Counted from the stretch's first letter, positions 31,573-55,736 are shown. The stretch: DNA of 64,000 nucleotides from an uncultured Pseudomonadota bacterium (GCA_964350195.1 CAYGJB010000002.1:15675-79674); one strand, 5' to 3'. The notes: generated from the sequence alone by a model not told the origin. Numbers and translations: made by a program.

Positions 31573-32130
31573 TTATTCATTATACAGAAATAAAATGTTA
31601 GATTTTTTATCGAAGTGAAAGGTGTGTACTGCGAGGGATGATGGAGCATTGATCAGAATATTCTCTAGGGCATCTATTACACGTCTCATATAATGCTTAT
31701 ATTCTTCGATTGTAGGAAAAATAGAAGGGCATATTCCAGTTCTCGCATAGCTAATCATGGCATAATGTTCTTTGCGAAATTGTGCAGTATCAATGTTTTT
31801 TTGCGTAAGATTTTGGATAGCAATGTCATGGTACGCAAAATCATAGCGCTCAAAAAATACCATAATTTGGTTTAAACTATACCAGGCTGCAACTGTTTTA
31901 TATTGATCATAGTATGATTGCTTGAGTTCGGCCGTAGGATGATGAGGCATGCTATCGATCCAAGTTTTCATTTTTTCCTCCTCAGCCTGAATTTGCCTGC
32001 AAGCTTCATTGAAATAAGGGCGAGTAAGATTGAGTGCAAATTCATGAAGTAAGGGAAAAAAGAAAAAAGGGTCAGCGATATTTGATGCTTGAGAAAGAAT
32101 AGATTTTAATTTTTCGATTGAATTGATCAC
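31573..32130 (-). CDS. hypothetical protein (185 aa), first gene of the orf185-RHH-recombinase unit
   Basis: Long ORF, co-directional with the RHH gene and 36 nt upstream of it. No recognisable motifs. Confidence 0.5.
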   Translation of the reverse strand: MINSIEKLKSILSQASNIADPFFFFPLLHEFALNLTRPYFNEACRQIQAEEEKMKTWIDSMPHHPTAELKQSYYDQYKTVAAWYSLNQIMVFFERYDFAYHDIAIQNLTQKNIDTAQFRKEHYAMISYARTGICPSIFPTIEEYKHYMRRVIDALENILINAPSSLAVHTFHFDKKSNILFLYNE

Positions 32131-32235
32131 TTTTTATTACTTCTTGAGGTATTGGATTATGCAAACGAAAAAGTTCTAAAATAATCCGATAGTGCACATG
32201 TGCACCTTTGACGAATATTTGGGAAATGAAAAAGA

Positions 32236-33330: not shown

Positions 33331-33342
33331 ATTAGGGATTCT

Positions 33343-33750
33343 ATGAAAAACGAACTGACTAAGCTAGAAGCTTTTAAAGCGATGACTAAGTTTCTAGAAA
33401 AGTGGTATGAGCTTACAAAGTCTGACGATATTGGATCGCTTCTTGGTGGTATAGATATAAATTTTTGGTGTAATGGTAAGCCATTTGATCCGGCTTTGTG
33501 GGGTGATTGGTTAGATGCTATTAATGTTGTTTTTAATAAGAAAGATGTAGACATTTTGACCGTTGAAGAGGCTTTTGAGGTTGTAACAAAGTTTTTGGAA
33601 AAATTGTATGTATATCCAATACCTGATGACATCCAAAGTTTATTAAGTGGTATGGGCACCGATCCTGCTTTTTATGAAGACTGGAAAAAGTCTATTTTTG
33701 AAACATTAAAATCACGTAATAATTATTGGGAGAAATGCACTAATGATTAA
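33343..33750 (+). CDS. candidate immunity protein with internal duplication
   Basis: Starts 12 nt after the toxin gene. It has two homologous halves: [33 protein letters not shown] and [33 protein letters not shown]. Small, acidic and cytoplasmic. Confidence 0.55.
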
Positions 33751-34084
33751 TTTGCCAAAATGTCCAAAATGTAGTTCAGAGTATACTTATGAAGATAATA
33801 GAATTTTGATTTGCCCTGAATGCGCTCATGAGTGGAACGTAGAAGCAGAAATCAGCAAGGTTGAAAATAAAAAGATTGTCAAAGATGCGCATGGAAATAT
33901 CTTGAATGATGGGGACTCTGTAGCGCTCATCAAAGATCTTAAACTAAAAGGAAGTTCATCGACCATAAAAGCTGGTACAAAAGTAAAAAACATACGGTTG
34001 GTCGATGAAGATCATAATATTGATTGCAAAGTTGATGGATTTGGCAAAATTGGTTTGAAATCTGAATTTGTCAAAAAAATATAG
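33743..34084 (+). CDS. yjdM: PhnA/YjdM zinc-ribbon protein
   Basis: [12 protein letters not shown]...CPECAHEW zinc ribbon plus a C-terminal SH3-like domain (D.NGN.L.DGDSV..IKDLK.KG.S..IK.GTKV..IRL). 113 aa. Confidence 0.85.
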
Positions 34085-38586: not shown

Positions 38587-40317
38587 ATGAAAAAAAATAT
38601 TTTTGTACGACTTTTATTTTTGCTATGCGCAGGGTTTATTATGTTTTCTTCTCCACTGCGTAGCAAAGATGGCAGGTTTGTAGATACGATTGAAGATAAT
38701 TTTGAAGAGGATATGTTACTTGGCAGTTACTTGGATGAAACCCCATTCGACAACAGCTCTACGCGAGCTACTATACCAGCATTTGATATCATAACTCTCA
38801 TTAAAGATGCGGGCGGATTTACCGTTCTCGATGAAGAACTTTATTTACGCACTAATCCTTTTGTAAAAAGAAGCATTTTAGATCTCCCTCTTTGGGAGAT
38901 GCATTCCTATCAAGAACCAGAACAGTGGATCTGTGGTGGTCAACTTTTTTGGAACTATATGAATAGAAGTGTGTTCACCTGCAAAAGCAGCAATATTAAT
39001 AGCTATCTCGATCTTGATAAAATCACCCTATTTAGCAAACTCGATACTATATCGGCCAAGATTAAAGAGAGCATTCCTGATGCAGGTCAAATTAGCGATC
39101 TTCTTGACTCTACGATGTTTGGAAAGACGCTGAAACTCTTTAGCAATTTTACCGTAGAACAACGCAGAATTGGTATTATGCTTCATGCATGGCGCCAATG
39201 GAAACGAGCTGAAGTTCGTATGCTTTGGCCCTTTTATTACATTGAACGCAACCATTTTGCGACTCCAAGCGAAAAAGCTGCTATAGAAAATGATTTTGGT
39301 GCTTTTACACCTGATGAGTTCAAGTCATTTAGTAAAAATCATGGCGCATCCGACAAACTTGGCTTTGGTGATTTTAGGTTTGAAGCAGACTATGCTGCCT
39401 TTCGATCTGATACCTTTGCTTTGCGTATTGGAGGATTTTTAACTTTGCCGATCGCGTTTACCGTCATAAAAGATATCAACGGATCATCCTTTAGCAATAA
39501 TTTAGCACAGCCAACCTTTAGTCTCCAAGACGCTTTTGATATTATTTTTAAAGATGGCGATTTGACCAATCCCACCGTAAGCGCAAACGAACAGGAAGCA
39601 ATGAGGCTGCTTTTAATTGGCAATATTTGTAAAAATAAAAATGGTTTTCTCTTAGGAGCGCTCGACCGATTAAACGCAATATTGCTTGATACGGAGCTTG
39701 GTAATCATCGGCATCTAGGGCTCGGCTTCATAATGCGCTCACGCACGTCGCTACGTGCATTACTCGATGAGTTTGAATGGTCCGACAATATATCATGGAA
39801 TAATCGCCTTTCAGTTGAATATCTCACACCAGCAAACGAAACCCGCTTTTATGCACGACGCATACCAGCAAAATCTTTTGATGATCTTGATACAGAAAGT
39901 ACCGATCCTGCTGTACAAGAAGCTACTGTTGCATTTCTTGACAAAGCGCTTGTTGATAAATTTTATCCCTATGCAATTAAAACACAGGTACATCCTGGCG
40001 TAATTTTTAGATGGTTTAGCAGGTGGTGTATCACCGGAGAAATATGGGATATTACGATCGGATCAGATTTTTGGTTACAACGAGATGAAACATTAAAAAA
40101 CTTAAATTGCGTTGACTCTGATTTATTACCAGAACTTGATATTAAACATGCGAAAAAAGGAATGGCGTACCAATTTAAATCAGTAGCTGGCCTTGGGCTT
40201 AAATTCATTCGGCCTGACTATGCTCTTTTCTTTAGCATTAATGCTGAAGGAACTAGCTGGAATAAAGGCATCGGAGATGATTGGGCTGTATCGCTCAATC
40301 TAGAAGCAAATTTTTAA
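38587..40317 (+). CDS. predicted outer-membrane beta-barrel protein
   Basis: Signal peptide. The C-terminal strands end ...AVSLNLEANF with a terminal Phe. No named family recognised. Confidence 0.55.
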   Translation: MKKNIFVRLLFLLCAGFIMFSSPLRSKDGRFVDTIEDNFEEDMLLGSYLDETPFDNSSTRATIPAFDIITLIKDAGGFTVLDEELYLRTNPFVKRSILDLPLWEMHSYQEPEQWICGGQLFWNYMNRSVFTCKSSNINSYLDLDKITLFSKLDTISAKIKESIPDAGQISDLLDSTMFGKTLKLFSNFTVEQRRIGIMLHAWRQWKRAEVRMLWPFYYIERNHFATPSEKAAIENDFGAFTPDEFKSFSKNHGASDKLGFGDFRFEADYAAFRSDTFALRIGGFLTLPIAFTVIKDINGSSFSNNLAQPTFSLQDAFDIIFKDGDLTNPTVSANEQEAMRLLLIGNICKNKNGFLLGALDRLNAILLDTELGNHRHLGLGFIMRSRTSLRALLDEFEWSDNISWNNRLSVEYLTPANETRFYARRIPAKSFDDLDTESTDPAVQEATVAFLDKALVDKFYPYAIKTQVHPGVIFRWFSRWCITGEIWDITIGSDFWLQRDETLKNLNCVDSDLLPELDIKHAKKGMAYQFKSVAGLGLKFIRPDYALFFSINAEGTSWNKGIGDDWAVSLNLEANF

Positions 40318-40339
40318 TTAAAGATATAAAGGTATTAAT

Positions 40340-41116
40340 ATGAAACAAGTAAAAATATTTGCACTGGCTCTCTTATTATCCTTTCCTTCTATCTCATTTT
40401 GCCACAGCTTGAAAGGACCTTTTTTACCTATTTTCAATAAGTATCTTATTGACACAATAGATGGCTCTAAGGTTGACGGAGAAACCGTCGGTAAAATAAA
40501 AAAATATCAAATGGATATGAGAAACATTTTATGTGGTAAGCTACAGCAAAATAAAACACATCTCGGTCAATATCTTTATGGCGATGCTAAATACTCTTTA
40601 AGCGAACTTGCACGAATAGAAGAAGAAGAAGGAACTAGTTCAACTTTTGCGACCCTACTCAAAAAAATGAGATCTGATTTTGAGAAAATTTCTGAGCCAT
40701 TTCGTGCTATCGTAAAAACTGTAACGGTAAAAGCCGCTATGGAGGTGCTTATAAAAGAATCTTGCGCCCTGCGCGGTAGGGAAGAAGGGGATTGTCTTCT
40801 TTTGGAATGGGCAAAACCAGGAAACAAAGACGAACATAAACTTTTTGATCATCACATCCAAAACATCGCTATTTTTGAGACTTTCCTTATTGATCTTAAC
40901 AACTTTTTGCACGATCTCATTGAAAGCTGCCCGAAAGCACAAGCTCAGTTTTTTGATCGGCTTGAAAAGTACAAAATAGTACGCAGCCTTTTGCCAGAAA
41001 CGGGCATTGATACAAAAAAAGAAGGGGAAGCTTTAAAAAAGATCTATCTTCATTTGAATAGCATGAAAATAGAAGAAATCACCCTAAACAAGATTAAAGA
41101 AATTTTAAAATCATAG
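40340..41116 (+). CDS. hypothetical secreted helical protein
   Basis: Signal peptide (..FPSISFC/HS), helical and charged. No recognisable family. Confidence 0.5.
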   Translation: MKQVKIFALALLLSFPSISFCHSLKGPFLPIFNKYLIDTIDGSKVDGETVGKIKKYQMDMRNILCGKLQQNKTHLGQYLYGDAKYSLSELARIEEEEGTSSTFATLLKKMRSDFEKISEPFRAIVKTVTVKAAMEVLIKESCALRGREEGDCLLLEWAKPGNKDEHKLFDHHIQNIAIFETFLIDLNNFLHDLIESCPKAQAQFFDRLEKYKIVRSLLPETGIDTKKEGEALKKIYLHLNSMKIEEITLNKIKEILKS

Positions 41117-43291: not shown

Positions 43292-43923
43292 AGCAAACTA
43301 CAATCATTGTGGCGCTTTTACTGAATTACATTGTTCAAGCAAAAAACTTAACTATCATGCTTGATCCAGCAGGCGATGCCAAGCAAACTGGCAGAGTAAT
43401 TGAAGATAGCTTTGAGCGGGCAATAACATACGATATTGCTGGTGCATTGAAAGAAGCATTAGAAAAGGAAAAAATTATTAACTGTATTCTCACGCGATCT
43501 CCCGGAGAAACAGTGGGATCATTACAAAATGCACATTTTGCCAATCGATTACCTATAGATCTATATATACGTATCCAATGCTGCCAGGCCACTCATGAAA
43601 AGCACTCACTCTATTTGTACTTTCTATCTTATAACGAACAGCTTCCTGTAAAATCAAACCCCTTTAATCTGATACCTTTTGATAAAGCACATCTTACTTC
43701 TCTTGATCAATCAAAAAAAATAAGTACTGCCCTTGCTAACTATATCCATCACCAGCATCCTCACATTCTCCTGCTGCATGGCCCTTTTGGCGTTCCTTGC
43801 ACCCCACTTATGGGAATAGCTGCACCCGCTTTATGTATTGAATTTTCTATTTCAAAAAATGATAACTGGCGCCCTTCAATCATTCCGCTTGCCAAATCTG
43901 TTGAAAAATCTTTAGCATCATGA
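43282..43923 (+). CDS. amidase_3-like (N-acetylmuramoyl-L-alanine amidase fold) protein with degenerate active site
   Basis: Signal peptide. IMLDPAGDAKQTG occupies the position of the usual IDPGHGG.D.G. The L.RAN....DLYIRIQCC region aligns to R..AN...ADLFISIHAN. Zinc-ligand positions appear substituted. Confidence 0.5.
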   Translation: MQIKQTTIIVALLLNYIVQAKNLTIMLDPAGDAKQTGRVIEDSFERAITYDIAGALKEALEKEKIINCILTRSPGETVGSLQNAHFANRLPIDLYIRIQCCQATHEKHSLYLYFLSYNEQLPVKSNPFNLIPFDKAHLTSLDQSKKISTALANYIHHQHPHILLLHGPFGVPCTPLMGIAAPALCIEFSISKNDNWRPSIIPLAKSVEKSLAS

Positions 43924-44465
43924 AATCTATAACAGTAACTATTACAAGCGGTGCTGCATGTTTGTTTGGAGCATTTTTTTATCTATGGCTACATGAGTGG
44001 ATTGTTATCCACCGGCCACAGCATGCAACATCTGTACGGAAAATATCCTCTCAAAAAAAGAACGTTTTACTCCATTATTGGAAAAACAATAGCTGGTACA
44101 AAGAATCCGATGAAATTATGTGGCCATCACAAAGCTGCTTGGCTGTACAACAACTGATAAATCGCTGGCTTCATCTACTAGAAGAAAGCGAGCTTATTGC
44201 CAAACATGTGGGAGTTGAATCAGTTGCACAAGCCCCCAACCATCAAACTCTTTATATTTCTTTTGATCGATATCCTCTATCAAAAGAGTGGTCGATGTTT
44301 CGTAAATGGATGTTTATCGAAGGTCTTTTAAAAACAATACGAGAACAAAGCCCCTCTTTCCGTGAAATTCTCTTTCTTATTCGCCATCAGCCTATGCATG
44401 ATATCCATCTTGATTTTAGCCACCCGTGGCACATTTCTGGCTATCTTGAACGCCCATTGCAATAA
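43920..44465 (+). CDS. hypothetical membrane-anchored protein, possibly GerM-like
   Basis: N-terminal TM helix. The start overlaps the stop of the amidase-like gene (ATGA). There is weak resemblance to GerM-type domains that accompany amidases. Confidence 0.35.
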   Translation: MKSITVTITSGAACLFGAFFYLWLHEWIVIHRPQHATSVRKISSQKKNVLLHYWKNNSWYKESDEIMWPSQSCLAVQQLINRWLHLLEESELIAKHVGVESVAQAPNHQTLYISFDRYPLSKEWSMFRKWMFIEGLLKTIREQSPSFREILFLIRHQPMHDIHLDFSHPWHISGYLERPLQ

Positions 44466-44527: not shown

Positions 44528-45808
44528 ATGAAGCGAGTTACAATAGCCCTATTACTTTTGGGCTCTCTTTTTTTTATGAAAGCAGCCAATGAAATTGAAG
44601 AATTAAAGCCTATTTCTGCGCGCTGGCCAATTAAAATGGGTGGTTATATAAAAAATGAATCATTCTGGGATACAAGACAAGTGGAGGGAGCTCGTGAAGA
44701 TCAAACACTTCTTTATCCTAAAAAAATAGAGCTTGATGCTAACTGCAACGATTTAAACAGCCAAGGCCAATGGACGATGGTAGCACTGCAAACTCGTATG
44801 CGCTGGGAGATTGATGGCCCAAAAGTAAAAAATGCAAATAGCTCAGGAACTATTGAATATGATTTTTTTGGTAGAGCAGGCATAGGAAATATTTTTCGTA
44901 TGCGCCATGCATATATGATGCTTACATGGGAAAAGGTTCAAATGCTTATGGGGCAAGCATATCATCCATTGTATGTAATCGGGGTTGATCCTCGTACAAT
45001 TTCATTCAATACAGGAATCCCCCTTGATACCTTCTCGCGTAATCCTCAATTTAGAATAGCGTATAAACCCGAAAAGCATTTTGAGCTAACATTCTGTGGA
45101 TCGGCAGAGCTTGATTTCCCTACAGATGGTCCCATTGGCAAAAGCACTACCTATTTGAGAGATAGCGTAACTCCCATGCTCGATTTTCGTTTGGACACTT
45201 ATTGGGGCGAGCATAGAGCAGGATTAGGCATTGATTATAAGCGCATCAGACCCCGTCTTAAAACAGATACTGGTCTAAAAACAAATGAAACATTGAATAG
45301 CGCGATTGCTATCGCATATACCAAATTGAAGTGGGACTCGTTCAATACTCGCTTTAAATTCATTTTCTATCAAAACGCTACTGATCAAAACATGATAGGT
45401 GGTTATGCGGTAAAAACGGTAGATCCAGATAGCGATAAACGAGAGTATGCCAATCTTAATGGTATCGCGTTTTGGAACGATACCGATATCACCTACAGCA
45501 AATCTATTATTCCTGGATGGTTTATCGGTATTGCCAAAAACCTTGGTGCGCGAACCACTATCTTACAAAATGTAATTGATACTGGTGGAAATATTACTGA
45601 TAGAAGAATTTATGGTGATGGAACCGATTTAAATTATCTTTTTCGAGTAGCCCCTCGTATTTTATGGAAAATTAATAATTTCACTTTTGCTGCCGAAGTT
45701 GAATACACTCGAGCTGCTTATGGCACAATTAATTGCGATGGAGAGGTTATTGATACCGATCCGGTGGGAGTAACTCGTGTTTTAGCTAGTGTGTTTTACC
45801 ACTTTTAA
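44528..45808 (+). CDS. predicted outer-membrane beta-barrel/porin-like protein
   Basis: Signal peptide, alternating strands, and a C-terminal ...VLASVFYHF. Confidence 0.6.
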   Translation: MKRVTIALLLLGSLFFMKAANEIEELKPISARWPIKMGGYIKNESFWDTRQVEGAREDQTLLYPKKIELDANCNDLNSQGQWTMVALQTRMRWEIDGPKVKNANSSGTIEYDFFGRAGIGNIFRMRHAYMMLTWEKVQMLMGQAYHPLYVIGVDPRTISFNTGIPLDTFSRNPQFRIAYKPEKHFELTFCGSAELDFPTDGPIGKSTTYLRDSVTPMLDFRLDTYWGEHRAGLGIDYKRIRPRLKTDTGLKTNETLNSAIAIAYTKLKWDSFNTRFKFIFYQNATDQNMIGGYAVKTVDPDSDKREYANLNGIAFWNDTDITYSKSIIPGWFIGIAKNLGARTTILQNVIDTGGNITDRRIYGDGTDLNYLFRVAPRILWKINNFTFAAEVEYTRAAYGTINCDGEVIDTDPVGVTRVLASVFYHF

Positions 45809-48800
45809 GAAGGTCAATTTTTTTCCATTCAGGCGCCCCTTCGTTAAACCATAGAGTATGAAGCAGCGTTCTGGTCTTTGGATCAAATTGTAAATAGAGC
45901 CCCTTATAATCTTCGCCTTTAATGGCAATGAGCTCCGACATTATCTTTTCTCTAGTAACCGGCTTTTCTATACTTTGCATCGTGGTAAGAAATAAATCCA
46001 TCGAAACATATGCCTCTAAGCTAAAAATGTCTGGAGTAACGTTGTATGTTTTACATGCTTCATTAAATTGCTTAACAATCTCTAATGTACTCGTGAGAGG
46101 GTTCGGCATCACATTCACATAAGTAAATGAAAGACCTGTGTCTTTCATAAACTTAATAACTCTCTCTTCACCAAAGTCAGAGTTACCAATCAATTTCAAC
46201 GACTTAATATTTTGAATGCCATATTGACGAATAAAACTTCTACCTGCAATAGAAGTAGTGAAAAAAAGAATCGCTTCTGGCTTGAATTCACTAATTCTTG
46301 CTACTTGTTCCGAGAAATCCATTTTGTTTCTTTTATAGGGCACTGCAATATAATCGCTTATCTTTCTTTCTTTAAGCAGTTCAACTGAAGCATCCAAAAG
46401 CCCCCTTCCAAAAGAGTCTTCTTGATAAAATAAAGCAAGCTTTTTAGTCTCCAATGTATCAAGAGCATATTCGGTAAGCACACGTCCCTCTGTGGCATAG
46501 GAAGCGCGTAAGTGAATAAGATGACTAAGATTTTCTTCACGAAACATAGGCGCACCCGTTATAGGAAAAAATACCGAAACGCTTCCCTCTTTTACTAAAT
46601 CTAGATAAGATTCTAATGTAGGACTTCCTACAGGGCATATCAATGTACTAATCCCCTCAGATAAAAATTTTTTAACATCTTTTTTCGTTTCTGAAGGAGT
46701 ATACGCATCATCAATAATTGAAATAGTAGGAATCTTTTTAAGCATTTCCACTTGAGCTTGCTTAAGGCGAATCTCTAGCCCTGCCTGTACGGCTTTGCCT
46801 TGCACCTTTGCCCCAAGAGATAGATCTATCGTAGAACCAAGACGTAACACATTATCATTTTCTACAAGCTCTTCTTTTTCTATGGCAGTTTTTCTTGGTA
46901 CTGATTTTGCATACCGAGCAATCCATGCTCCTTGACCAGGATCAATCCATAATGTTTCAGAGAGCTCACGCGTTTCTGGATTAAGATTTAAGTTTAAACC
47001 CTTGAATGAATAGTTATTAAAGCTCTCACCCACCTTAATGATGGCCTCTTTAGTAATAGGCCCCTTTATTTTACTCAATATCAAAAATAAGATACTTGCG
47101 TTTATGTATTGCTCAAAAGCAACCTTATCATATGATAAATTTTTTCTGTCCGCCCATTCCCGATACTCTTTGGCAATTTGAAGAGTACTGGTAGCAGGAT
47201 CAGGAACCATCCGAATAAGTACAAACTCCAAACCTTTATCTTTCAAAAATCGCTCAAAGGCATCTTCATATACAGAAAGACCAAGAAGCTTCTTTCCTGC
47301 AAAATATTGTACTCCTAGCTGACGTATTAATCCCCGTATAGCAAGAGCGTTTGTGAAGAACAGTATCGTATCAGGATTGGCTTCTTTTATTTTTTCAGCC
47401 TGCGATTTGTAATCTACTACATTTCGCTCATGTGGTACCTCAATGAAACTCGTCATACCTTCCTCTTTCAAGGTCCTGCGAGCCCCTTCAAGCGCTCCAC
47501 GACCAAACGCATCATCCTGATAAAAAAGAGCAATTTTTTTTGATTTTAAGTCTTTAAGAGCGTAGTTAATCAGTTCTTCACCCTCACGAATATACGATCC
47601 TCGATAGTGAAGAATATTTTTTAAGTTTTGATTTCTAAAAAGAGGAGACCCAGTAAAGGGAAATAATACAAGCACATCACCACGCTGGATCATATCCAGA
47701 TACGATTCAAGAGACGCACTTCCTTGAGAACCTATAAGAAAAGTGGTACCGTCTTTCATCAACTCTTCCACCGCTCCTCGAGTCTTATGTGGAGTATACT
47801 CGTCATCAATTGTTCTAATCTGGGGAATAAGATTTGCAATAGAATCAGTAACAAGCTCCCTATCAAATGCAAGCTCTAAACCCTCTTTAACTTTTTTACC
47901 AATAGGACTCGCTCCTTTTGATAAATCCATAGTTGAACCAAAATTGATCACTGTAGATTTTTTACGCTCTCCTGAAACAAATATTTCTCTACCGGTAATG
48001 AGATTATATAGAGCAGCTTCTTGAAAACCTTCAAGCTTTTTTATGTCCTGATTAATCAAAGCAATCGTCCAGCTATTGATCCTTTTTGCTATTTTAATCT
48101 CTGCAAAAGCATCGTAATGGAAGTTATACAATATTTGATTTCGTTCTGTTGGAGAAGAAAATACAAGCCACTTTGTCGCTCCTTCAAATGAACCAATAAG
48201 GCTCAGCCCTGTTGTTACGTGAAAATTTATTGCTCGATCTTCCCCTGTTATATATGCCTGCAATTGCACCGTTTTCTTATTTTCATCACTCGTCGCATTG
48301 CTACTCCTTTTTTTACTGAGCAAAAATGTACTATGTTGATCTTTGGTATTTAAAAGCTGCGATAGATTATTAGCAGTAAGGTAGTTTTTAATTTTATCGT
48401 TATTACCAATAAGAACAGTTTCAAGCCTGTCCTTCTCATCCTGCGTAAGAAATAAAGCAAGCGGCAAAGATTTAAAGAAGCGATTAAATAAGGATGCAAA
48501 CGGAATCAACTCTTTTGAAAAACCTTCTCCTCTCATTTTAAGCTCTCTAATAAGCTCAAAATTTTGCCAGCGTTCTTCAATTTCATGAGATCCACACGTA
48601 TAAAAAACATGATTAGGATTCTTTTTCATAAGCAGTAAGACTACAAAGAATGTTTCTAAAATAAATGGAGACCCTCCAACAACATTCCCGTTAAAAACTA
48701 CATAATAGTTTGGCTTAATAATTTTAAAAGAATCATCAATTATGTTGCGCTCTTTAAGATAAGCTAAATCACGCAAAAAAGAATGAAAGGCACCAAATAG

Positions 48801-49166
48801 ATCTGTCCATATCAAAAAAGTATCGTTTGCAATTGGTTTAAACTGTTGCCCAAAAGGAGTGTCTCTCTTTTTCTTTTCTCTTTCACCAACCATCTGCTCA
48901 AGAACATCTTTAAAAACTCCAATATCAAACAGCTTTTTTCCTAATCCAAACCGCATTGATAGCCGAGAAAAAAAGTTAGGACGTTGCTTTCTATGAAACG
49001 AGTCAAAAACTGGATGCTGCCAATTTTTATTATCTGGCATTACTGATTTTGGAAGCACTTTTGCATAAGATTCTGCCTGCGAAAGGGTAAAAAAATGAGC
49101 AAACGTTATAGAGAAAGTAGAAAACAAACACAATAAACCAATCACAAATAGTCGCTTCATCTTCAT
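45786..49166 (-). CDS. periplasmic multidomain protein: degenerate PPP-phosphatase-like domain plus two type-1 periplasmic-binding (LivK/Peripla_BP_6-like) modules
   Basis: Signal peptide. In aa ~105-395, FLIWTDLFG / FNGNVVGG / CGSHE sit where GDxHG / GDxVDRG / GNHE are expected. aa ~405-750 and ~773-1118 are paralogous PBP1 modules (INFGSTMDLSKGAS../LRLGSTIDLSLGAK.., ..IDDEYTP../..IDDAYTP.., KKIALFYQDDAFGRG/KKLALFYQEDSFGRG). Confidence 0.7.
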   Translation of the reverse strand: MKMKRLFVIGLLCLFSTFSITFAHFFTLSQAESYAKVLPKSVMPDNKNWQHPVFDSFHRKQRPNFFSRLSMRFGLGKKLFDIGVFKDVLEQMVGEREKKKRDTPFGQQFKPIANDTFLIWTDLFGAFHSFLRDLAYLKERNIIDDSFKIIKPNYYVVFNGNVVGGSPFILETFFVVLLLMKKNPNHVFYTCGSHEIEERWQNFELIRELKMRGEGFSKELIPFASLFNRFFKSLPLALFLTQDEKDRLETVLIGNNDKIKNYLTANNLSQLLNTKDQHSTFLLSKKRSSNATSDENKKTVQLQAYITGEDRAINFHVTTGLSLIGSFEGATKWLVFSSPTERNQILYNFHYDAFAEIKIAKRINSWTIALINQDIKKLEGFQEAALYNLITGREIFVSGERKKSTVINFGSTMDLSKGASPIGKKVKEGLELAFDRELVTDSIANLIPQIRTIDDEYTPHKTRGAVEELMKDGTTFLIGSQGSASLESYLDMIQRGDVLVLFPFTGSPLFRNQNLKNILHYRGSYIREGEELINYALKDLKSKKIALFYQDDAFGRGALEGARRTLKEEGMTSFIEVPHERNVVDYKSQAEKIKEANPDTILFFTNALAIRGLIRQLGVQYFAGKKLLGLSVYEDAFERFLKDKGLEFVLIRMVPDPATSTLQIAKEYREWADRKNLSYDKVAFEQYINASILFLILSKIKGPITKEAIIKVGESFNNYSFKGLNLNLNPETRELSETLWIDPGQGAWIARYAKSVPRKTAIEKEELVENDNVLRLGSTIDLSLGAKVQGKAVQAGLEIRLKQAQVEMLKKIPTISIIDDAYTPSETKKDVKKFLSEGISTLICPVGSPTLESYLDLVKEGSVSVFFPITGAPMFREENLSHLIHLRASYATEGRVLTEYALDTLETKKLALFYQEDSFGRGLLDASVELLKERKISDYIAVPYKRNKMDFSEQVARISEFKPEAILFFTTSIAGRSFIRQYGIQNIKSLKLIGNSDFGEERVIKFMKDTGLSFTYVNVMPNPLTSTLEIVKQFNEACKTYNVTPDIFSLEAYVSMDLFLTTMQSIEKPVTREKIMSELIAIKGEDYKGLYLQFDPKTRTLLHTLWFNEGAPEWKKIDLLKSGKTH

Positions 49167-50239
49167 CCTTTAGCCCAAATGAAAAGAAGGTAATACCACA
49201 TGAGTATGAATAGTATATGAAAAAGTATAAATACAAGCCCACGCGCAATAAACATTCCTTTTGTTATAGTACCATGCCTCACCCATATAAGGGCAAATAC
49301 AAAGCTAATAAAGGCTAGAGCAAGAAAAAAGGTAAATATATGATCACTTAGCAGAAAATAGCCTACCTTAGGAGACATATTTTGTATTACAAATCGATAA
49401 GCAATCAAAGATGTTACTGCACCGGTAGCAAGATACATAATTGAACTTTTATATTCTGGTTCAAATGAAAACCAAAACAAACTAATAAAAAAAATTAAAA
49501 ATACAGGCAAAAAAATCAACAAAATTAAACGTATGCCAGATCTCGTAAAATCCATCATAAACACTACTATGGGATAACGAATATTCTTTCGTTCATCAAA
49601 TTTATCAACGTCCTCTTCCTCATAGCCGGAAAGAACTGCTCTATCTATATGATGCCATGCAGGAATAAAAATTTTCTTTGACACTCCAAAATCTGATTTA
49701 TAGGAGCGAAAAATCATCTCGCTTGGCGTTACAACGGTGTTTACCAAGCTTATGTAGATACGATGATCATCTAGAGGAAAAGATTGATGATTCAATAGAG
49801 TCGTAAATCGAAGCCGTATCTTATATTCTGCAAGAAGTTTACCATCAATAAGCTTTGTACTTGGCTCTGATTTTTTTATCAACTCCCCCTTTTCAAAAGA
49901 AAATTTTTCAATCGTATCAAGGGAAATAAGAGCAGGATCAAATTGAAACCACACCACACCATCAAAAACAAAAAGATTGTCTACAAGACTAAACTGATGC
50001 CAATTAGTGATATATAGTCCCACCTGTACCAATACAGGATCGCCTCCCCACTCTTTGAGTCTTTCTGGCGTAACGGACTGTACTTCTGGATATTTTTCAT
50101 TTGGCCGAAAACGATTAATCGCGCGCCCTCCCAGAAAAAGCACAATGCTCGAGGTTATTATAAGTGCTAAAAGCTGGTATTGAGGGCGCACTACTTGTAA
50201 GCAAAAATATTCTAAATAATTTTTTTCCATGAGCCTCAC
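49163..50239 (-). CDS. prokaryotic pentameric ligand-gated ion channel (pLGIC, GLIC/ELIC-like)
   Basis: Colinear with GLIC. V.V.VGLYI....F....N.F.FDGVVWFQF matches beta1-beta2. FPLDDHRIYISL matches the Pro-loop FPFD motif. TRSGIRLILLIFLPVFLIFFISLFWFSF matches pre-M1/M1. ATGAVTSLIAYRFVIQNMSPKVGYFLLSD matches M2 and the M2-M3 loop. M3 and M4 follow. Confidence 0.78.
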   Translation of the reverse strand: MRLMEKNYLEYFCLQVVRPQYQLLALIITSSIVLFLGGRAINRFRPNEKYPEVQSVTPERLKEWGGDPVLVQVGLYITNWHQFSLVDNLFVFDGVVWFQFDPALISLDTIEKFSFEKGELIKKSEPSTKLIDGKLLAEYKIRLRFTTLLNHQSFPLDDHRIYISLVNTVVTPSEMIFRSYKSDFGVSKKIFIPAWHHIDRAVLSGYEEEDVDKFDERKNIRYPIVVFMMDFTRSGIRLILLIFLPVFLIFFISLFWFSFEPEYKSSIMYLATGAVTSLIAYRFVIQNMSPKVGYFLLSDHIFTFFLALAFISFVFALIWVRHGTITKGMFIARGLVFILFHILFILMWYYLLFIWAKG

Positions 50240-50443: not shown

Positions 50444-50683
50444 ATGAAGATGTTCGAGCTAACCACCTCCACTAAAGGTATTTTATTAATTATTGCAGGC
50501 ATTATCATACTGTTTAATTCTTTAGGATTTGTAACTGAGCTACTGCACAGTATTGTACTCTTTGGCTCAATTGCAATGATCATATTAGGCATACTTATGT
50601 CCAACGTTCATCGCTGGCTTTTTTCCCTTATATCAGGAGAAAAAAAAGAAAATAAAGATATTAATCAAACGCCACCAAGCTAA
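50444..50683 (+). CDS. small membrane protein (79 aa, two TM helices)
   Basis: Two hydrophobic helices and a K/E-rich tail. An AAAGGGG sequence is upstream. Confidence 0.45.
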   Translation: MKMFELTTSTKGILLIIAGIIILFNSLGFVTELLHSIVLFGSIAMIILGILMSNVHRWLFSLISGEKKENKDINQTPPS

Positions 50684-50700
50684 TTTCTAAATAAAATAGT

Positions 50701-50736
50701 TGATGCCCAATACAAATTTCTATGTATTGGGCATCA
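50701..50736. terminator. long perfect hairpin between convergent genes
   Basis: TGATGCCCAATAC-aaatttctat-GTATTGGGCATCA, a 13-bp stem. There is no strong T-run, so it could be a bidirectional terminator or an RNA-stability element. Confidence 0.55.
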
Positions 50737-50789
50737 ATATAATATCTCTTTATACAGCAAGCGCTCACTTCCTGTTCGCTCGCTTATCG

Positions 50790-51422
50790 CTATTCACCAC
50801 TATACTCTACTACGCCATCGTTGCCATCTATATTATTCTCTTCTTCTTCGATAACATTCGCTCTCTCTAATGCTTCTCTTCTTTTTGCTTCTCTTCTTCT
50901 TTTCCAATAATTATATCCCCTTTTGCCAAGGTATGCGGCAGTACCTGCAGCAATCGCTCCAGCCACCCCTGCTCCTACTTTCTTTTTATTAGTAGACCAG
51001 AAAGAAGTATTATTAAGCATATTTTTTTGAGCAGTAGAAGATCCCTGATTTGATTGTGGCCCAGATTCATATAGAACAGGTTGAGCAATAAACGTTTTAT
51101 AGGCTATCTGGATTTTGTCTATAGCGGTCTGAATAGCCTTTTTATTAGAAGAGCTTCTTCTCAGATCCATTAATTTCAACTTTAGCCTATTCATTGCTCC
51201 CCTATTGTTTTTACTCTTATAAATATTGTTCAAATTTATAGCACCGTGATTTATATCATTAACAATGTCATTGAGGCTATTTGAATTAGCTAATAATATA
51301 TGTTCAATGTTATGATCGTTACGTATCCAACCTATAAACATATCAGTATTATCCTTCATCATCCCATACGAGCTCGCTCCATATATCAAACCTAAAAGCA
51401 ACATTAATCTTATACTTATCAT
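50790..51422 (-). CDS. hypothetical secreted protein with Gly-zipper helix and basic/acidic tail
   Basis: Signal peptide, a GAGVAGAIAAGTAAYLG helix, RRREAKRREALE, and an acidic end. Confidence 0.5.
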   Translation of the reverse strand: MISIRLMLLLGLIYGASSYGMMKDNTDMFIGWIRNDHNIEHILLANSNSLNDIVNDINHGAINLNNIYKSKNNRGAMNRLKLKLMDLRRSSSNKKAIQTAIDKIQIAYKTFIAQPVLYESGPQSNQGSSTAQKNMLNNTSFWSTNKKKVGAGVAGAIAAGTAAYLGKRGYNYWKRRREAKRREALERANVIEEEENNIDGNDGVVEYSGE

Positions 51423-51608: not shown

Positions 51609-54600
51609 CTAATCTTTATTTTTTCTTGAAGGGCTTGCTAAGTGCTGAAGATTATCTGCCTGACGCGTAAGAAGAAGGCGAGCTGGCAGTGCAATCTTAA
51701 TGTCTTTTTCATTAAATGCTTTTATGATATTTATGCGTATATTACTCGCTATTTCCCATTTTTCAAGCGTATATACTGAGCTTATAAAGCCACGAACCAT
51801 AAATTCATAGCCATACTCTCCAAAATGATCAAGGCGCACCCATGGCTTTGGATTTTTCAAAATAGTGGGATGACTCTCAACAACTTCATAAAGCACTTTA
51901 CGCACCAATTCTGGATCTTCTTTGTAATCCACATGAATCTTAATATCGTCAAATGCGATAAAATTACGTGTATAGTTCCAGTTGATAATTGTTTTACTTA
52001 TCAAAAAGGAGTTGGGTACAATAAGCGTCGTACTATTCTTGCGACGAAGAATAACTGATCGTGCAGTTATTTTACGAACTACCCCTGTGACTTCACCGTC
52101 AATTCTAATATAATCACCAATCTTAACCGGCCGCTGCACAAGAATAATAAAATAGGAGACAAAATCAGAAATAGGATCTTTCAATACCCAGCCCAAACCG
52201 AGTATTAAAGCACCAACAATATAGTTAACCAACGCCCCAAGCTTTGCGTTTTGAAAACCAAGAAACACGAACGTAATAATAACTAAATATTGGGTGAGAC
52301 TCGAAAATGTATGCTGTATTCCTGAATCAACAAGTAATAGATCAAAAACACGATCAAGCACAAACTTATTAAGACCATATGCAACTATAAAACCAATAAG
52401 AATAAATATAAGAAGATTAAAAAAGGTAATAAACGATATAGGACTTTCTGTGCCAGCACCAATCACCGGATAATCAATAAGCTCTCTAATCCGATAAAAT
52501 GTTATTGGCCATCCCCATATTTTAGCCGCTACAATTATGCCAAAAAAGCTAAGAAGCAAAAACGAAACTATTATAGTTATACCAAACCAGGTCTTTGCAT
52601 TTGCAAATCGCTCACGAGCTACATCATCCACGCTTGAAAAGTATACTCTAGAAGCAATGCGCTTGAATACTCCATGCAAATAATACAATACAAGAAAAAG
52701 TGCAATCGTATACAACCATCCAAAAAGTGCATAAAGCACCAACCTGCCAAATCCCACATATGGATTACTCATCACAATAATGGTGATGAAAAGCAGTAGA
52801 ATGAGATAGTAAAAGCGATCTACTTTCTCCCGTACCCATTGGCCAACTTCAGTACGTACTGGAATAAAGCTGAGTATTTGCTCTTTATCTAATAAGAGAA
52901 TGAGGCCTATCTGAAAAATGATAAAATTGATCGCAAGCAAAATCGTAGGAAGCTCAGAACGATAATAGTGAGCCAGCATAAATGCTTCACGGAAAAAGAA
53001 AATGGTGATAGTTGAATACATGAGCACGGTAAGCACAAACCAAAAACGTCGCTGAAAATCAGATGCTATGAAAGCATATTCATTTTCTTCGTTATATCGT
53101 GTGAGAAAATACACAAATCGATTAGAAAGATACAGAAGATACGCAATAGAAATAAGGTAGAAAATAATATAAAGATACGTATCAACAGTGTCTTGAAAAA
53201 ATAAAGCCGAGAACAAAACAATCCAGAAAGCCACTGCAAAAAAATAGGTATTAAAAAATTCGCTGATACCTGCTAATAAAATAGCTATCATGCGAATCAA
53301 ACCATGGCCTGTCAGACCACGCAACAAAATGGCTAGCTTTGGAAGTAGCCGATAGAAGATAAAAAGAACAATGCCTAGCATTAGCAATTTAAAAAGAAGC
53401 GTAACCCAGGCCATTGGATCTTTAACCGCATCATACAAACGGTTTGCGGTACTAATCACCGCTCCGTGAGTGAAATAATTCCGAACAAACATGAAAAAAT
53501 TAACCACGTCCGGTAAAATATTTTTAATACCATCCCAAGTTATTGCGTATTCAGGACGATACCAAATCGTACGAGATTCAAGCTCTCCAGTAATAAATCC
53601 AATCAGTCTAAGCTTGTTACTCACCACCAAAGATATTCCAGAGTAAATACCTGTTAGCTTACTGAGAAGATCAACTTCTTCTCTTTCAAGAAGCTCTGAT
53701 TGATTAATCAATCTTAGACAGGTGCCATACTCTGTAGCACGTGATCTAAAAATAGTATCTTGATCTTTTTTAATCTGCTTTTTAAGAGCAATGATATTAT
53801 CTATTATCTTTTTTTTATGGTTTATTTGATCAGCTACATGGCTCATTCGTTCTTTTGAGCGAGAGAACCCTGCTTGAGATTCAGCTTTTGGACCATCATA
53901 CTTTTTAAGCTCAGCAGCAATCTCATCTTCGGTTGTAAACTTTCGATGGTAAGATTCTTTCACCAACAGGCTCAACTGCTCGTCTTTCATCTCTTCATCT
54001 TTAAGCCCAATCTGGGCCTCAATCAGCTCTTGCTTGCGTTGATAGAACGCAAGCTGTGTTTGCAGAGCAGCAACTTCAATATAGGCTAGATAAGAAGCAG
54101 AGGTTGGCTGAGACTCTTTTGACCAATCTATTATTTCCCGCCCAAGCGTAATGCCATGCTTTTTAGCCACATTCTGCAGCTCTTTTTGTGCTCGCTCTTC
54201 CTGAATCAACAGAGCATCGATTTCTGAGCGGTACTGTTCTTTTGTTTTACGGTATTTTTGATTTTTTTTATTCTGCTCTTCTCGCGCATGAACAATATCA
54301 GCTTCAGTAACTCGTACCGCTGGCTTGATCAGCTTTAGATACTCTTTAAAAATCGTAAGGTGTGACTTTGCAATCGAAAGCTGAAGAGAAAAAAATTCAA
54401 TCTTGTAGTCAGCCTCTTTTATACGCAAAGCATCAAGAACTTTTCGATAGCTAAATATTCGCTCTTCAATTGAAAGAAGCTCTCCTTGTTGCTGAGTATT
54501 AAATGCTTCATTATCCGTATACTTTCCAGTATTAATTTGCTCTTTTTTACTCGCATATGCCTCTTTTGTAGCTGCTGCTGCCCGTTTACTTGTTTCTCGT

Positions 54601-55154
54601 TCAGTAGCAGCATGCTTTTCTTCATCAGAAAGCACGCTTACTTTTTTCTCTTGATCCAAAATCAAATTATAAAGACGCTGTAAATCCTCAAACGAATAAA
54701 AAAGCCGCTCACCCAAGCGATACTCTTTTTTAAAGCTATTGTTATCAGGATCGGCAAGAAACTCTTTTAGCAACCGAATAAAGTCATCGAGCATCGTAAG
54801 AGTACGTTCTCGATCGCGAATTATATCTCTAAAAATTTGATAAAGCTCACTCAGAAGATGCTGCTTTTGCCTGAGAAAGTCATTGTCTGGCTTCTCTTTT
54901 ATTTGCAACGCGATCTGCTCAATTTGGCCGCGCGTTTCATCCGAGAGTGAACGCAGCTCCGCTTCGCGCTCTTGTTTTATTTTTTCAAGCTGTTCCCGTT
55001 CTGTTTGAAGTCGCTCGAGTTGCTTTTGTCTATTCTCAACCACTCCTACAAAGAGTTTGTCCGTTTTGGGTAACGGCAAACCAGGAGTGTCGGCATGCAA
55101 AACTGAACTAACTAATAGAAACAACGTAACAAGAAAAAGCATCTTTTTTTTCAT
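51609..55154 (-). CDS. MscK/MscM-like large mechanosensitive channel (MscS family)
   Basis: 1181 aa. Signal peptide, roughly 500 aa of periplasmic coiled coil, about 11 TM helices, and an MscS core (VQRPVKIGDYIRIDG..G.V.KI..RS..L...N....IVPNS). Confidence 0.88.
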   Translation of the reverse strand: MKKKMLFLVTLFLLVSSVLHADTPGLPLPKTDKLFVGVVENRQKQLERLQTEREQLEKIKQEREAELRSLSDETRGQIEQIALQIKEKPDNDFLRQKQHLLSELYQIFRDIIRDRERTLTMLDDFIRLLKEFLADPDNNSFKKEYRLGERLFYSFEDLQRLYNLILDQEKKVSVLSDEEKHAATERETSKRAAAATKEAYASKKEQINTGKYTDNEAFNTQQQGELLSIEERIFSYRKVLDALRIKEADYKIEFFSLQLSIAKSHLTIFKEYLKLIKPAVRVTEADIVHAREEQNKKNQKYRKTKEQYRSEIDALLIQEERAQKELQNVAKKHGITLGREIIDWSKESQPTSASYLAYIEVAALQTQLAFYQRKQELIEAQIGLKDEEMKDEQLSLLVKESYHRKFTTEDEIAAELKKYDGPKAESQAGFSRSKERMSHVADQINHKKKIIDNIIALKKQIKKDQDTIFRSRATEYGTCLRLINQSELLEREEVDLLSKLTGIYSGISLVVSNKLRLIGFITGELESRTIWYRPEYAITWDGIKNILPDVVNFFMFVRNYFTHGAVISTANRLYDAVKDPMAWVTLLFKLLMLGIVLFIFYRLLPKLAILLRGLTGHGLIRMIAILLAGISEFFNTYFFAVAFWIVLFSALFFQDTVDTYLYIIFYLISIAYLLYLSNRFVYFLTRYNEENEYAFIASDFQRRFWFVLTVLMYSTITIFFFREAFMLAHYYRSELPTILLAINFIIFQIGLILLLDKEQILSFIPVRTEVGQWVREKVDRFYYLILLLFITIIVMSNPYVGFGRLVLYALFGWLYTIALFLVLYYLHGVFKRIASRVYFSSVDDVARERFANAKTWFGITIIVSFLLLSFFGIIVAAKIWGWPITFYRIRELIDYPVIGAGTESPISFITFFNLLIFILIGFIVAYGLNKFVLDRVFDLLLVDSGIQHTFSSLTQYLVIITFVFLGFQNAKLGALVNYIVGALILGLGWVLKDPISDFVSYFIILVQRPVKIGDYIRIDGEVTGVVRKITARSVILRRKNSTTLIVPNSFLISKTIINWNYTRNFIAFDDIKIHVDYKEDPELVRKVLYEVVESHPTILKNPKPWVRLDHFGEYGYEFMVRGFISSVYTLEKWEIASNIRINIIKAFNEKDIKIALPARLLLTRQADNLQHLASPSRKNKD

Positions 55155-55160
55155 AAAATT

Positions 55161-55736
55161 CTATTTGCTCACTAAAAAGTGCACGGTCTTAAATTGTTCT
55201 ATCTCTGGATGCTCCGAGACACATACACGTAACCACTCTTCCAACATTTTTTCACTTTCTTCACCAAGAACTTCATCACTCAATCGATCTAGCGGTAATG
55301 CCATAAGCTGATGCATCATGACATCTGGAATCTTGGGAAATTCTGGCTGCATCCCTATCATGGATAACAGCTTGAAAAGATACATTTTTTTTGCCTGAAT
55401 ACCCCATAAAGATCCTTTCTCAACTGTATACAAAAACAAAAGAAGTTCAAACAATTCGGGGTCCTGGCTCCCAATTGGCACAAAGTAATAACAAAGCTCA
55501 AGAACATGATGCCAAAAAAGAATATCCAATCGAGCCAAGAAAGAGGGCAAATCATTAATCGAGCACTCTCCTATAAAAAATGCTGATGAGCGTTCTCGCT
55601 CAATCTTATATCCAATAAGAGCTCCAAGCACAGGGGTCTTTAACGTAATACCATCAATGCGCCCGTATTCCCGATCAAGCAATGCAATTTTATGCGAAGA
55701 GATCAGTTTGAGTACAATAGCATTCCGACTAATCAT
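55161..55736 (-). CDS. possible DNA repair protein RecO (short, divergent)
   Basis: The N-terminal AIVLK......KIALLDREYGRI pattern resembles the RecO OB-fold N-terminus, followed by a helical region. The size is small (191 aa) and the match is weak. Confidence 0.4.
   Translation of the reverse strand: MISRNAIVLKLISSHKIALLDREYGRIDGITLKTPVLGALIGYKIERERSSAFFIGECSINDLPSFLARLDILFWHHVLELCYYFVPIGSQDPELFELLLFLYTVEKGSLWGIQAKKMYLFKLLSMIGMQPEFPKIPDVMMHQLMALPLDRLSDEVLGEESEKMLEEWLRVCVSEHPEIEQFKTVHFLVSK

Follow-up and report, generated by a model that had tools for sequence, protein, structure and literature searches.

A divergent pentameric ligand-gated channel encoded with a periplasmic pseudo-phosphatase and binding-protein partner: a candidate sensor-channel complex of Dependentiae

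The window, by which we mean the whole 64,000-nucleotide stretch of DNA analyzed here, contains a gene for a predicted pentameric ligand-gated ion channel (pLGIC) that ends on the start of a gene for a secreted protein, and the question arises whether the two products work apart or as a single receptor. We consider it reasonably probable that they make up a single sensor-channel complex of the envelope, for which the best description is a binding-protein-dependent pentameric ligand-gated channel. The features of the locus are listed below.

44528..45808, plus strand: DcaP-like outer-membrane porin gene, 426 aa (profile match, AF2 model, Foldseek)
45786..49166, minus strand: gene for the periplasmic partner protein, 1126 aa; its start overlaps the channel stop (ATGA)
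45789..46871, minus strand: type I periplasmic binding module b of the partner (Peripla_BP_6), 41% identical to module a
46872..47966, minus strand: type I periplasmic binding module a of the partner (Peripla_BP_6)
47967..49085, minus strand: PPP-family phosphatase-like domain of the partner with a conserved N-terminal extension (family profile, motif mapping)
49086..49166, minus strand: the partner's Sec-type signal peptide (roughly residues 1-27), MKMKRLFVIGLLCLFSTFSITFA, read directly
49163..50230, minus strand: divergent pLGIC (Pro-loop receptor) gene, 355 aa from ATG 50230
49163..50239, minus strand: formal extent of the pLGIC open reading frame, to GTG 50239
49175..49531, minus strand: M1-M4 transmembrane domain of the channel (residues 234-352), in which the M3-M4 loop is very short
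49538..50068, minus strand: channel extracellular beta-sandwich domain, about residues 55-231 (model secondary structure, conserved columns)
50114..50185, minus strand: extra N-terminal helix of the channel, residues 16-39, a probable uncleaved signal-anchor or 'TM0' (AF2 model)
50700..50737, minus strand: terminator-like hairpin (15 bp) with T-run, 3' of the upstream gene (presumed function)

Both open reading frames reported in an earlier note on this DNA, that of the channel and that of the 1126-aa secreted protein, are present. The channel probably starts at ATG 50230, which has GAGG ahead of it and gives the same form as a protein-database entry (P0001), with GTG 50239 the less likely start. 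The channel TGA (49165-49163) shares an ATGA with the first ATG (49166-49164) of the 1126-aa frame; the text of the earlier note, in which the channel stop lies over the partner start by 4 nt, was thus accurate, whereas its title had the direction reversed. Shine-Dalgarno spacing is better for another in-frame ATG, at 49160, which leaves two possible junctions, a 4-nt overlap and a 2-nt gap. The channel and partner genes are translationally coupled, and the hairpin at 50700..50737 appears to set the upstream gene apart from their transcription unit.

Judged by family profile and structural model, the 355-aa protein is a true pLGIC with the full fold. A profile built from 45 channel homologues finds GLIC as its best match (E about 1e-8), and Foldseek comparison of the AF2 model (pLDDT 89.3, pTM 0.79) with the PDB returns GABA-A, GluCl, GlyR and GLIC structures at probability 1.0 (E 1e-18 to 1e-16), a strong fold match that bears out the earlier assignment of the 358-aa frame to the GLIC/ELIC type. 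Support from the single sequence is weak: it matches the PDB at E 4.8e-5 (phmmer) and NCBIfam LGIC_1 at E 1.3e-5 with 24.8 bits, below the cut-off of 500, and has no match to any Pfam model at E up to 1, Neur_chan_LBD and Neur_chan_memb included. The channel therefore falls outside both curated models, and of the two kinds of HMM match that had been anticipated the family profile delivers the one to a GLIC structure while the Pfam Neur_chan models are silent.

Conserved columns and the AF2 model confirm the FPLDD Pro-loop, pre-M1 Arg and M1-M4 that had been read from the sequence. The extracellular beta-sandwich holds a WFxFDP block, the Pro-loop and the pre-M1 R230, and is followed by four transmembrane helices. 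Across the 45 homologues F151 and P152 of the Pro-loop are invariant, as is P242 in M1, while D154 and R230 are each conserved in at least 90%, so that the Pro-loop pattern F/Y-P-x-D, pre-M1 Arg and M1 Pro are all present; M2 carries invariant Y278 and F280, near-invariant R279, and P287. The N-terminal helix, in which P16 and Q19 are nearly invariant in the family, occurs in the fused forms described below as well, and is probably kept in the mature channel ahead of the extracellular domain. In core fold and size, Pro-loop, pre-M1 Arg and short M3-M4 loop the protein resembles GLIC, ELIC and sTeLIC, although it differs from them in its ∼14% identity, its extra conserved helix and its obligate-looking partner gene.

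The 1126-aa partner is a secreted protein made up of a PPP-phosphatase-derived domain and, C-terminal to it, two type I PBP (Venus-flytrap) modules; its alignment to the fused protein P0338 begins at residue 28. On the partner alone, Pfam Metallophos scores 18.7 bits, below its cut-off of 21.5, but a 67-sequence profile of the PPP-like family matches PP2A, PP5 and PP1 (E 3.5e-9 to 1e-6) across motifs I-III, which establishes homology to the PPP catalytic core by the family profile if not by Pfam, where a match had also been expected. The regions of motifs I-III and a SAPNY-like 'SSPT' segment are recognisable. We scored seven catalytic residues (D64, H66, D92, D95, R96, N124 and H125 in PP1 numbering); the C-terminal His ligands gave no reliable alignment. 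In place of the expected D-H-D-D-R-N-H the window copy reads D-F-N-G-G-S-H, within the degenerate motifs TDLFG, NGNVVGG and GSHE; the residues of GDxHG, GDxVDRG and GNHE are thus not intact, with two of the seven kept and five, including the phosphate-binding Arg, lost. The predicted loss of metal ligands is borne out by this profile alignment, in which most metal and catalytic residues are missing. The signatures map exactly to where they had been placed, but calling them 'all substituted' went a little too far, for D122 (the D of GDxHG), H194 and E195 (of GNHE) remain.

None of the 79 copies at the surveyed loci keeps all seven residues, and only 2 of 153 PPP-like representatives do; given these two, some members may still be active. 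Over the family, active-site residues change almost without constraint and the conserved positions are structural. Within the partner the domain is N-terminal in 152 of the 153 representatives, and in 35 it stands without other modules. It shares a homologous catalytic-domain fold with PP1, PP2A and PP5, but is periplasmic, lacks several metal or catalytic residues in most members, and serves as the N-terminal module of binding-protein arrays.

Peripla_BP_6 matches the rest of the partner in two stretches (E 1.2e-57; profile positions 4-335 of 343), each a full-length two-lobed HAAT module, and the two paralogous type-1 modules proposed previously are 41% identical to each other. Their PDB matches are LIV-binding-protein-like structures. 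The ligand loop, FPxTG[AS]P, is unlike that of LivJ and Atu2422, so an amino-acid ligand is not established; the description 'amino-acid-binding-type' holds as a family label but not as a ligand assignment, which cannot be made from sequence. No ABC-importer permease or ATPase genes were found in the window neighbourhood or in any annotated related locus, and the classical setting of a PBP beside importer genes is thus missing from these loci, although a transporter may be encoded elsewhere in the genome. The number of PBP modules per partner ranges from 0 to 7, a spread that simple 1:1 docking does not readily accommodate.

Convergent with the partner gene, and overlapping its 3' end by 23 nt, is the gene for a protein with a signal peptide and a C-terminal Phe. 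Its profile matches the DcaP-like structure 6eus (E 1.3e-8), some homologues pass Pfam DcaP, and its AF2 model (pLDDT 90.3) matches Omp32, PorB and OmpF in Foldseek (E 5e-14), identifying an outer-membrane beta-barrel porin with DcaP-like homology. Porin genes recur as a third member beside the channel genes, in 23 of the 54 loci that span 15 kb or more.

We surveyed gene neighbourhoods at 69 loci with 78 channel copies; the genomes are species representatives, and almost every one bears the label Dependentiae, TM6 or Babeliales. A PPP-like gene is next downstream on the same strand in 59 copies, a PBP gene follows directly in two, and neither is directly downstream in 17; PBP-only partners occur, for instance at L015. 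Fully solitary channels occur, such as L005/L059 on a 1.6-Mb chromosome, and these may need no partner or may use one encoded at another locus. The median junction between channel and partner is 10 nt, and 58 of 63 do not exceed 30 nt. Conservation of the pair, on which the earlier proposal depended, is therefore very wide and not a matter of chance. The orders seen are channel-NTD-PBP(n), PBP-channel-NTD, channel-PBP and partner-then-channel, and some loci have a channel and PPP-like gene without a downstream PBP. Starting instead from the partner family gave three loci, each of which has adjacent channel genes. In the tandem paralogue pairs of L076 and L009 the orthology of channel and partner stays matched; the two duplicate together as a unit. 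Pairwise identities among channels and among the PPP-like domains next to them, compared as matrices, are correlated (r = 0.74, with 0 of 999 permutations above 0.154), as would be the case with any pair of linked genes.

Channel, PPP-like domain and PBP are also found in one polypeptide, in four independent clusters at 50% identity (P0308, P0338, P0351 and P0366, about 1100 aa each), two of which were checked as uninterrupted reading frames on contigs from different samples. The fusion junction lies directly after channel M4, where the partner signal peptide would end, so that the PPP-like domain follows the periplasmic end of M4 immediately. These natural fusions lend further support to the earlier suggestion that a separate partner acts as the sensor. 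From the recurrent pairing across Dependentiae together with the fusions, channel and partner are very probably one sensor-channel complex, and we strongly infer that they associate physically.

Coupling of this general kind has been predicted before. Tasneem, Iyer, Jakobsson & Aravind (Genome Biol. 6:R4, online December 2004; PMC549065) described bacterial pLGICs fused to PBP-I or sharing operons with PBP-II or Cache proteins, and proposed that stand-alone binding proteins in the same operon cooperate with the channel. The functional logic is the same here, a bacterial pLGIC being genomically coupled to modules of the periplasmic-binding-protein superfamily. However, the Dependentiae system has neither the N-terminal PBP-I nor the operonic PBP-II of that architecture; its PBP-I modules, up to seven in number, are in trans or C-terminal after M4, and a degenerate PPP-phosphatase domain precedes them. 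What is new relative to the 2004 prediction is the pseudo-phosphatase adaptor, the accessory domains in trans or at the C-terminus, and the restriction to one phylum, Dependentiae. The earlier note did not recognise the arrangement as described, and this stands for the specific architecture but not for the published idea of PBP/pLGIC fusions or operons.

The partner may gate the channel or deliver ligand to it. PBP modules would capture a small periplasmic solute, which could plausibly enter through the co-located DcaP-like porin. The PPP-like pseudoenzyme may be a channel-proximal adaptor, because of its almost invariable N-terminal position and its placement directly after the periplasmic M4 end in fusions; PBP closure would be relayed through it to the channel extracellular domain, and ion flow across the inner membrane would start or change as a result. 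We suggest tentatively that this could be the first binding-protein-dependent pLGIC, gated by a dedicated periplasmic auxiliary subunit and not by a free molecule at its own orthosteric site; no characterised example was found in the searchable literature. The pseudo-phosphatase would then dock on the channel beside the periplasmic end of M4, and when one or more Venus-flytrap modules went from open to closed it would pass the movement on to the pore. If so, channel, partner and dedicated porin would form a three-tier ionotropic receptor with which the host-dependent Dependentiae read host metabolites, and among pLGICs the natural fusions would be the first to have their extracellular accessory domains at the C-terminus.

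Gating by an auxiliary subunit has to be weighed against a concentrator model, the published proposal of Tasneem et al. for PBP and Cache partners (PMC549065), in which the PBP protein merely enriches or hands over a ligand that binds at the channel's own orthosteric site with no conformational coupling. The complete extracellular domain, with its conserved aromatics W94, F95, F110 and F151, would allow this, and a variable number of PBP modules suits an 'antenna' better than a fixed gate. Nevertheless, fusion right after M4 and the near-constant channel-proximal PPP-like domain suggest fixed attachment and not free diffusion, and simple hand-over leaves that domain unexplained; we regard the model as unlikely here.

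It is more doubtful still that the genes share an operon merely for co-expression, the channel being unrelated and the partner scavenging nutrients for a transporter elsewhere. Periplasmic Metallophos enzymes and Peripla_BP_6 proteins do usually serve uptake, 17 of the 78 channels have no adjacent partner, and two PPP-like family members retain the complete catalytic signature. Yet such independence is at odds with four independent fusions, with co-duplication and tight junctions, with annotated loci devoid of ABC permease and ATPase genes, and with a window PPP-like copy deprived of most of its catalytic residues. Pseudophosphatases often retain ligand binding, and the PPP-like domain might itself be the sensor, binding perhaps a metal ion, phosphate or phospho-metabolite in the remnant active site, with the PBPs accessory or structural. 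This would fit its standing as the most constant channel neighbour and the occurrence of PPP-like proteins or loci without PBPs, but the near-free variation of active-site residues beside conserved structural positions argues against a conserved pocket ligand, and PBP-only partners exist; we judge this highly improbable.

A Venus-flytrap module, either soluble or tethered, that senses ligand and informs a membrane protein is familiar from ABC and TRAP importers, from the chemoreceptors Tar and Trg, which dock MBP and GBP, and from iGluR and mGluR; the membrane partner in the proposed sensor-channel complex would instead be a pentameric Cys-loop-type channel. DeCLIC of Desulfofustis (PDB 6v4a) offers another parallel, in that periplasmic accessory mass rivals or exceeds that of the channel and modulates gating. 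Its accessory domains are N-terminal, Ca2+-binding jelly-rolls (PMC12664993), in contrast to the separately or C-terminally encoded PPP-like fold and Venus-flytrap modules described here. DeCLIC is among the PDB sequence matches of the window channel (E 2e-4), in the TMD region.

The channel gene is the first of a pair on the reverse strand and its stop codon overlaps the start of the gene for the 1126-aa secreted partner. The overlap is an ATGA, in which the channel TGA (49165-49163) shares bases with the partner's first ATG (49166-49164); the text of the earlier note described this correctly, whereas its title inverted the arrangement. ATG 50230 is the likeliest start of the channel; GAGG precedes this codon, and the database copy, P0001, is 355 aa long. 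A further in-frame ATG in the partner, at 49160, has Shine-Dalgarno spacing superior to that of the first, and with either partner ATG the coupling of the two genes spans only a few nucleotides. The features of the locus are as follows.

Features of the channel-partner locus
49163..50239, reverse strand: channel ORF, first of the pair
50114..50185, reverse strand: extra N-terminal helix of the channel (residues 16-39; P16 and Q19 nearly invariant), preceding the extracellular domain
45786..49166, reverse strand: partner ORF, downstream of the channel
50737-50700: terminator-like hairpin of 15 bp, closing the gene upstream of the channel
44528..45808, forward strand: DcaP-like outer-membrane porin with a signal peptide and C-terminal Phe, convergent with the partner, the 3' ends overlapping by 23 nt
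51609..55154, reverse strand: MscK/MscS-like mechanosensitive channel of 1181 aa with a very long N-terminal region
55161..55736, reverse strand: unannotated 191-aa protein, preceding the MscK-like gene

Since the hairpin ends the upstream gene, the channel and partner probably constitute a separate transcription unit. Housekeeping genes surround the locus in the window (BamA, GroEL, AtpA, UvrB and a PBP transpeptidase), and a phage or mobile-element origin was rejected, the first four of these being chromosomal genes.

As a single sequence the channel has no match in Pfam, scores 24.8 bits against NCBIfam LGIC_1 (cut-off 500), and has a best phmmer match in the PDB of 4.8e-5. These values are too weak to decide, and family profiles and structure prediction were therefore required. 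None of the 189 channel homologues carries a precomputed Pfam domain. The profile of a 45-sequence alignment of homologues matches GLIC at about 1e-8, the match extending from Pro-loop to M4, and the alignment conserves a WFxFDP block, FPLDD (F151 and P152 invariant), the pre-M1 R230, P242 in M1, and a YRF...P motif in M2. The AF2 model (pLDDT 89.3, pTM 0.79) retrieves GABA-A, GluCl, GlyR and GLIC in Foldseek searches with a probability of 1.0 and E-values of 1e-18 to 1e-16. The profile and structural matches bear out the earlier assignment of this ORF to the pLGICs, and the channel is a genuine, highly divergent member. In a provisional profile register only, M2 has Thr at 9' and Phe at 16', without the canonical -1' Glu or PAR motif. 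The extra N-terminal helix resembles a signal-anchor that is kept more than a signal peptide that is cleaved off, and it may be a retained fifth transmembrane segment; this would be unusual among bacterial pLGICs. The sole non-bacterial match of the channel profile is in a Bathyarchaeia MAG (locus L074, 8854..9582; 26% identity), with a short downstream sequence.

The partner begins with a Sec-type signal peptide. Residues about 400-1126 comprise two Peripla_BP_6 modules (E 1e-57) that are 41% identical to each other, in agreement with the two paralogous type-1 binding modules proposed earlier, and their closest structural relatives are LIV-binding-protein-like proteins. The ligand loop of the modules, FPxTG[AS]P, differs from those of LivJ and Atu2422. 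The segment before the modules, residues about 28-400, is homologous to PPP phosphatases. Taken singly, the window copy stays below the Pfam Metallophos threshold, and a 67-sequence profile of PPP-like domains matches PP2A, PP5 and PP1 at about 4e-9; the PPP fold is predicted solely from such sequence profiles. One copy with an in-frame stop codon (L032, 13385..14530), which could reflect a pseudogene or an error in sequencing, was left out of the profile.

The alignment agrees with the mapping of TDLFG, NGNVVGG and GSHE onto GDxHG, GDxVDRG and GNHE, respectively, in the earlier note, and a comparison with a PP1 sequence gives the same picture as the PDB alignments from the profile. The companion claim that the metal-binding signatures are all substituted is slightly too strong; among the seven residues scored (D64, H66, D92, D95, R96, N124 and H125, PP1 numbering) the window copy has lost five and kept two. 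Not one of the 79 copies at related loci has all seven. With the PPP-like domain as query, an exhaustive HMMER search gave 389 representatives (E <= 1e-30), of which 153 were parsed for domains; all seven residues are present in two of these, P0340 and P0297, and six in 16. At the C-terminal metal-ligand region (PP1 H173, H248), which is not alignable by HMM, a tentative reading gives 'ISHS' in some members and 'LIGNN' in the window, with no His at the RAHQ position. Positions conserved family-wide are structural ones and the catalytic residues are variably lost; the domain therefore descends from an active PPP, with repeated decay of the active site, and the window copy ranks with the most degenerate.

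When one genome was scanned for each species, 69 loci emerged, nearly all labelled Dependentiae, TM6 or Babeliales, and the pair clearly co-occurs in these relatives. For 78 channel copies the downstream sequence is 1.5 kb or longer; the next same-strand gene encodes a PPP-like domain in 59 of them, a PBP directly in two, and neither in 17. The median gap at 63 channel-partner junctions is 10 nt (30 nt or less in 58), and at the 54 loci of at least 15 kb a PPP-like domain is present in 47 and PBP modules in 48. Loci seeded with the partner have adjacent channel genes in three of three cases, with an intact catalytic signature in two of the three seeds, and at least 10 MAGs contribute two separate loci apiece. 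With NTD denoting the N-terminal PPP-like domain, the module orders seen are channel-NTD-PBP(n), tandem [channel-partner]x2, PBP-channel-NTD, channel-PBP, and partner then channel. In locus L015 (6637..11077) two tandem channels are each directly followed by a single PBP gene without a PPP-like domain, which shows that not every unit has the adaptor.

At L076 and L009, related loci with two tandem pairs, each channel paralogue has the same best external match as the partner beside it, which shows that channel and partner have duplicated as a unit. Channel and partner divergence are correlated (r = 0.74, with no permutation of 999 above 0.154), some correlation being expected of linked genes. 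Two or more tandem units per relative were seen at L076 (10001..20246), L009 (6244..14406), L044, L048, L053 and L062; the window genome has one unit only, orthologous to the second unit of L076 and L009.

Domain architectures among the 153 parsed representatives
NTD-PBP: 76
NTD alone: 35
NTD-PBPx2 (window type): 24
NTD plus 3-7 PBPs: 13
Single-chain channel-NTD-PBP: 4 (database proteins P0308, P0338, P0351 and P0366)
PBP-NTD: 1

The fused protein P0338 matches the window channel with 38% identity (E 2e-68) and the window partner with 36% identity over 734 residues (E 3e-132), the latter alignment starting at partner residue 28, just past the signal peptide. The fused chains keep M4 ('YYLLYQW') and then continue into the partner's conserved N-terminal extension, whose motif is 'TL..YA..E.P..DN.WLNPDY'. 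For two of the fused genes an uninterrupted ORF was confirmed; the two contigs come from different samples, and the neighbouring genes differ. In the established pLGIC topology M4 ends outside the cytoplasm, so the fusion puts both the PPP-like domain and the PBP domains in the periplasm, which agrees with the signal peptide of the unfused partner. By the classical Rosetta-stone argument this is evidence that channel and partner form a physical complex, with the PPP-like domain nearest the channel.

No Pfam model detects the convergent porin, although its family profile matches the DcaP-like porin 6eus at 1.3e-8 and its AF2 model (pLDDT 90.3) matches Omp32, PorB and OmpF. At 23 of the 54 large loci a homologue is found no more than 10 kb from the channel, often directly upstream on the same strand, and as a recurrent neighbour the porin is a candidate third component beside channel and partner. 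Porin homologues also occur in Bacteroidales and Aminicenantes MAGs. The MscK-like and 191-aa genes were rejected as core components, as they accompany the channel in only eight of the 54, all of the closest clade. An M3 peptidase (55729..57837) lies upstream in both the window and L076.

We consider it rather probable that the system is a binding-protein-dependent ionotropic receptor. A solute would cross the outer membrane, possibly via the DcaP-like porin, and be captured by the Venus-flytrap modules, and the signal would pass via the pseudo-phosphatase adaptor to the pLGIC. This reading draws on the directly supported folds, secretion signal, degenerate active site, operon coupling, co-duplication and fusion; docking geometry, gating, ligand class and ion selectivity we infer. 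There are rival accounts: channel and partner could be co-expressed and have independent functions, the PPP-like domain could itself be the sensor, or the PBP partner could be a pure ligand concentrator (Tasneem et al.).

The ionotropic receptor proposed here differs in arrangement from known systems. Tasneem et al. (Genome Biol. 6:R4, online December 2004; PMC549065) described PBP-I fused to the N-terminus of bacterial pLGICs, and pLGIC operons with PBP-II or Cache proteins, whereas the accessory domains of the Dependentiae family are in trans or C-terminal. The N-terminal accessory domain of DeCLIC can modulate gating (PMC12664993). The searchable literature holds no description of the Dependentiae channel-partner family, of a PPP-derived pseudoenzyme as a pLGIC adaptor, of pLGIC accessory domains in trans or at the C-terminus, of arrays of up to seven PBP modules with a pLGIC, or of a pLGIC-porin link. 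Bacterial pLGICs, among them GLIC, ELIC, sTeLIC and DeCLIC, serve as structural surrogates for neurotransmitter receptors, and to our knowledge very little has been established of their physiological ligands and roles. The Dependentiae family offers a natural handle on such ligands, in that the sensor subunit is conserved, genetically linked and sometimes fused; its ligands are open to screening by the usual binding-protein assays, and its effect on gating to direct measurement, so that the physiological ligand and the auxiliary-subunit gating of a bacterial pLGIC become experimentally accessible. It is also a probable case of the PPP-phosphatase fold being re-used outside the cytoplasm as a structural adaptor. 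Dependentiae depend on hosts and their genomes measure 1.2-1.7 Mb; an expanded sensory system, here a multi-copy and phylum-restricted one of the envelope, is therefore noteworthy.

Several further features of the window were observed. A small ORF of 79 aa with two predicted hydrophobic helices (50444..50683, forward strand) lies opposite in strand between the upstream genes and the channel, and counterparts of 67-77 aa have the identical place and orientation in L003, L076 and L083. ORFs of 576, 258, 181 and 210 aa near the locus (38587..41116 and 43920..44465, forward strand; 50790..51422, reverse strand) have no Pfam match, nor do the latter two match NCBIfam. At 32001..34000 the GC skew is locally reversed (+0.25, vs about -0.1 elsewhere) and GC is low (0.354); the ORF at 32236..33330 (forward strand) inside this segment has no Pfam match. 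Another extracytoplasmic sensor, a 676-aa protein with no recognised output domain, is encoded at 8143..10173 (reverse strand) and contains two sCache_2 sensor domains.
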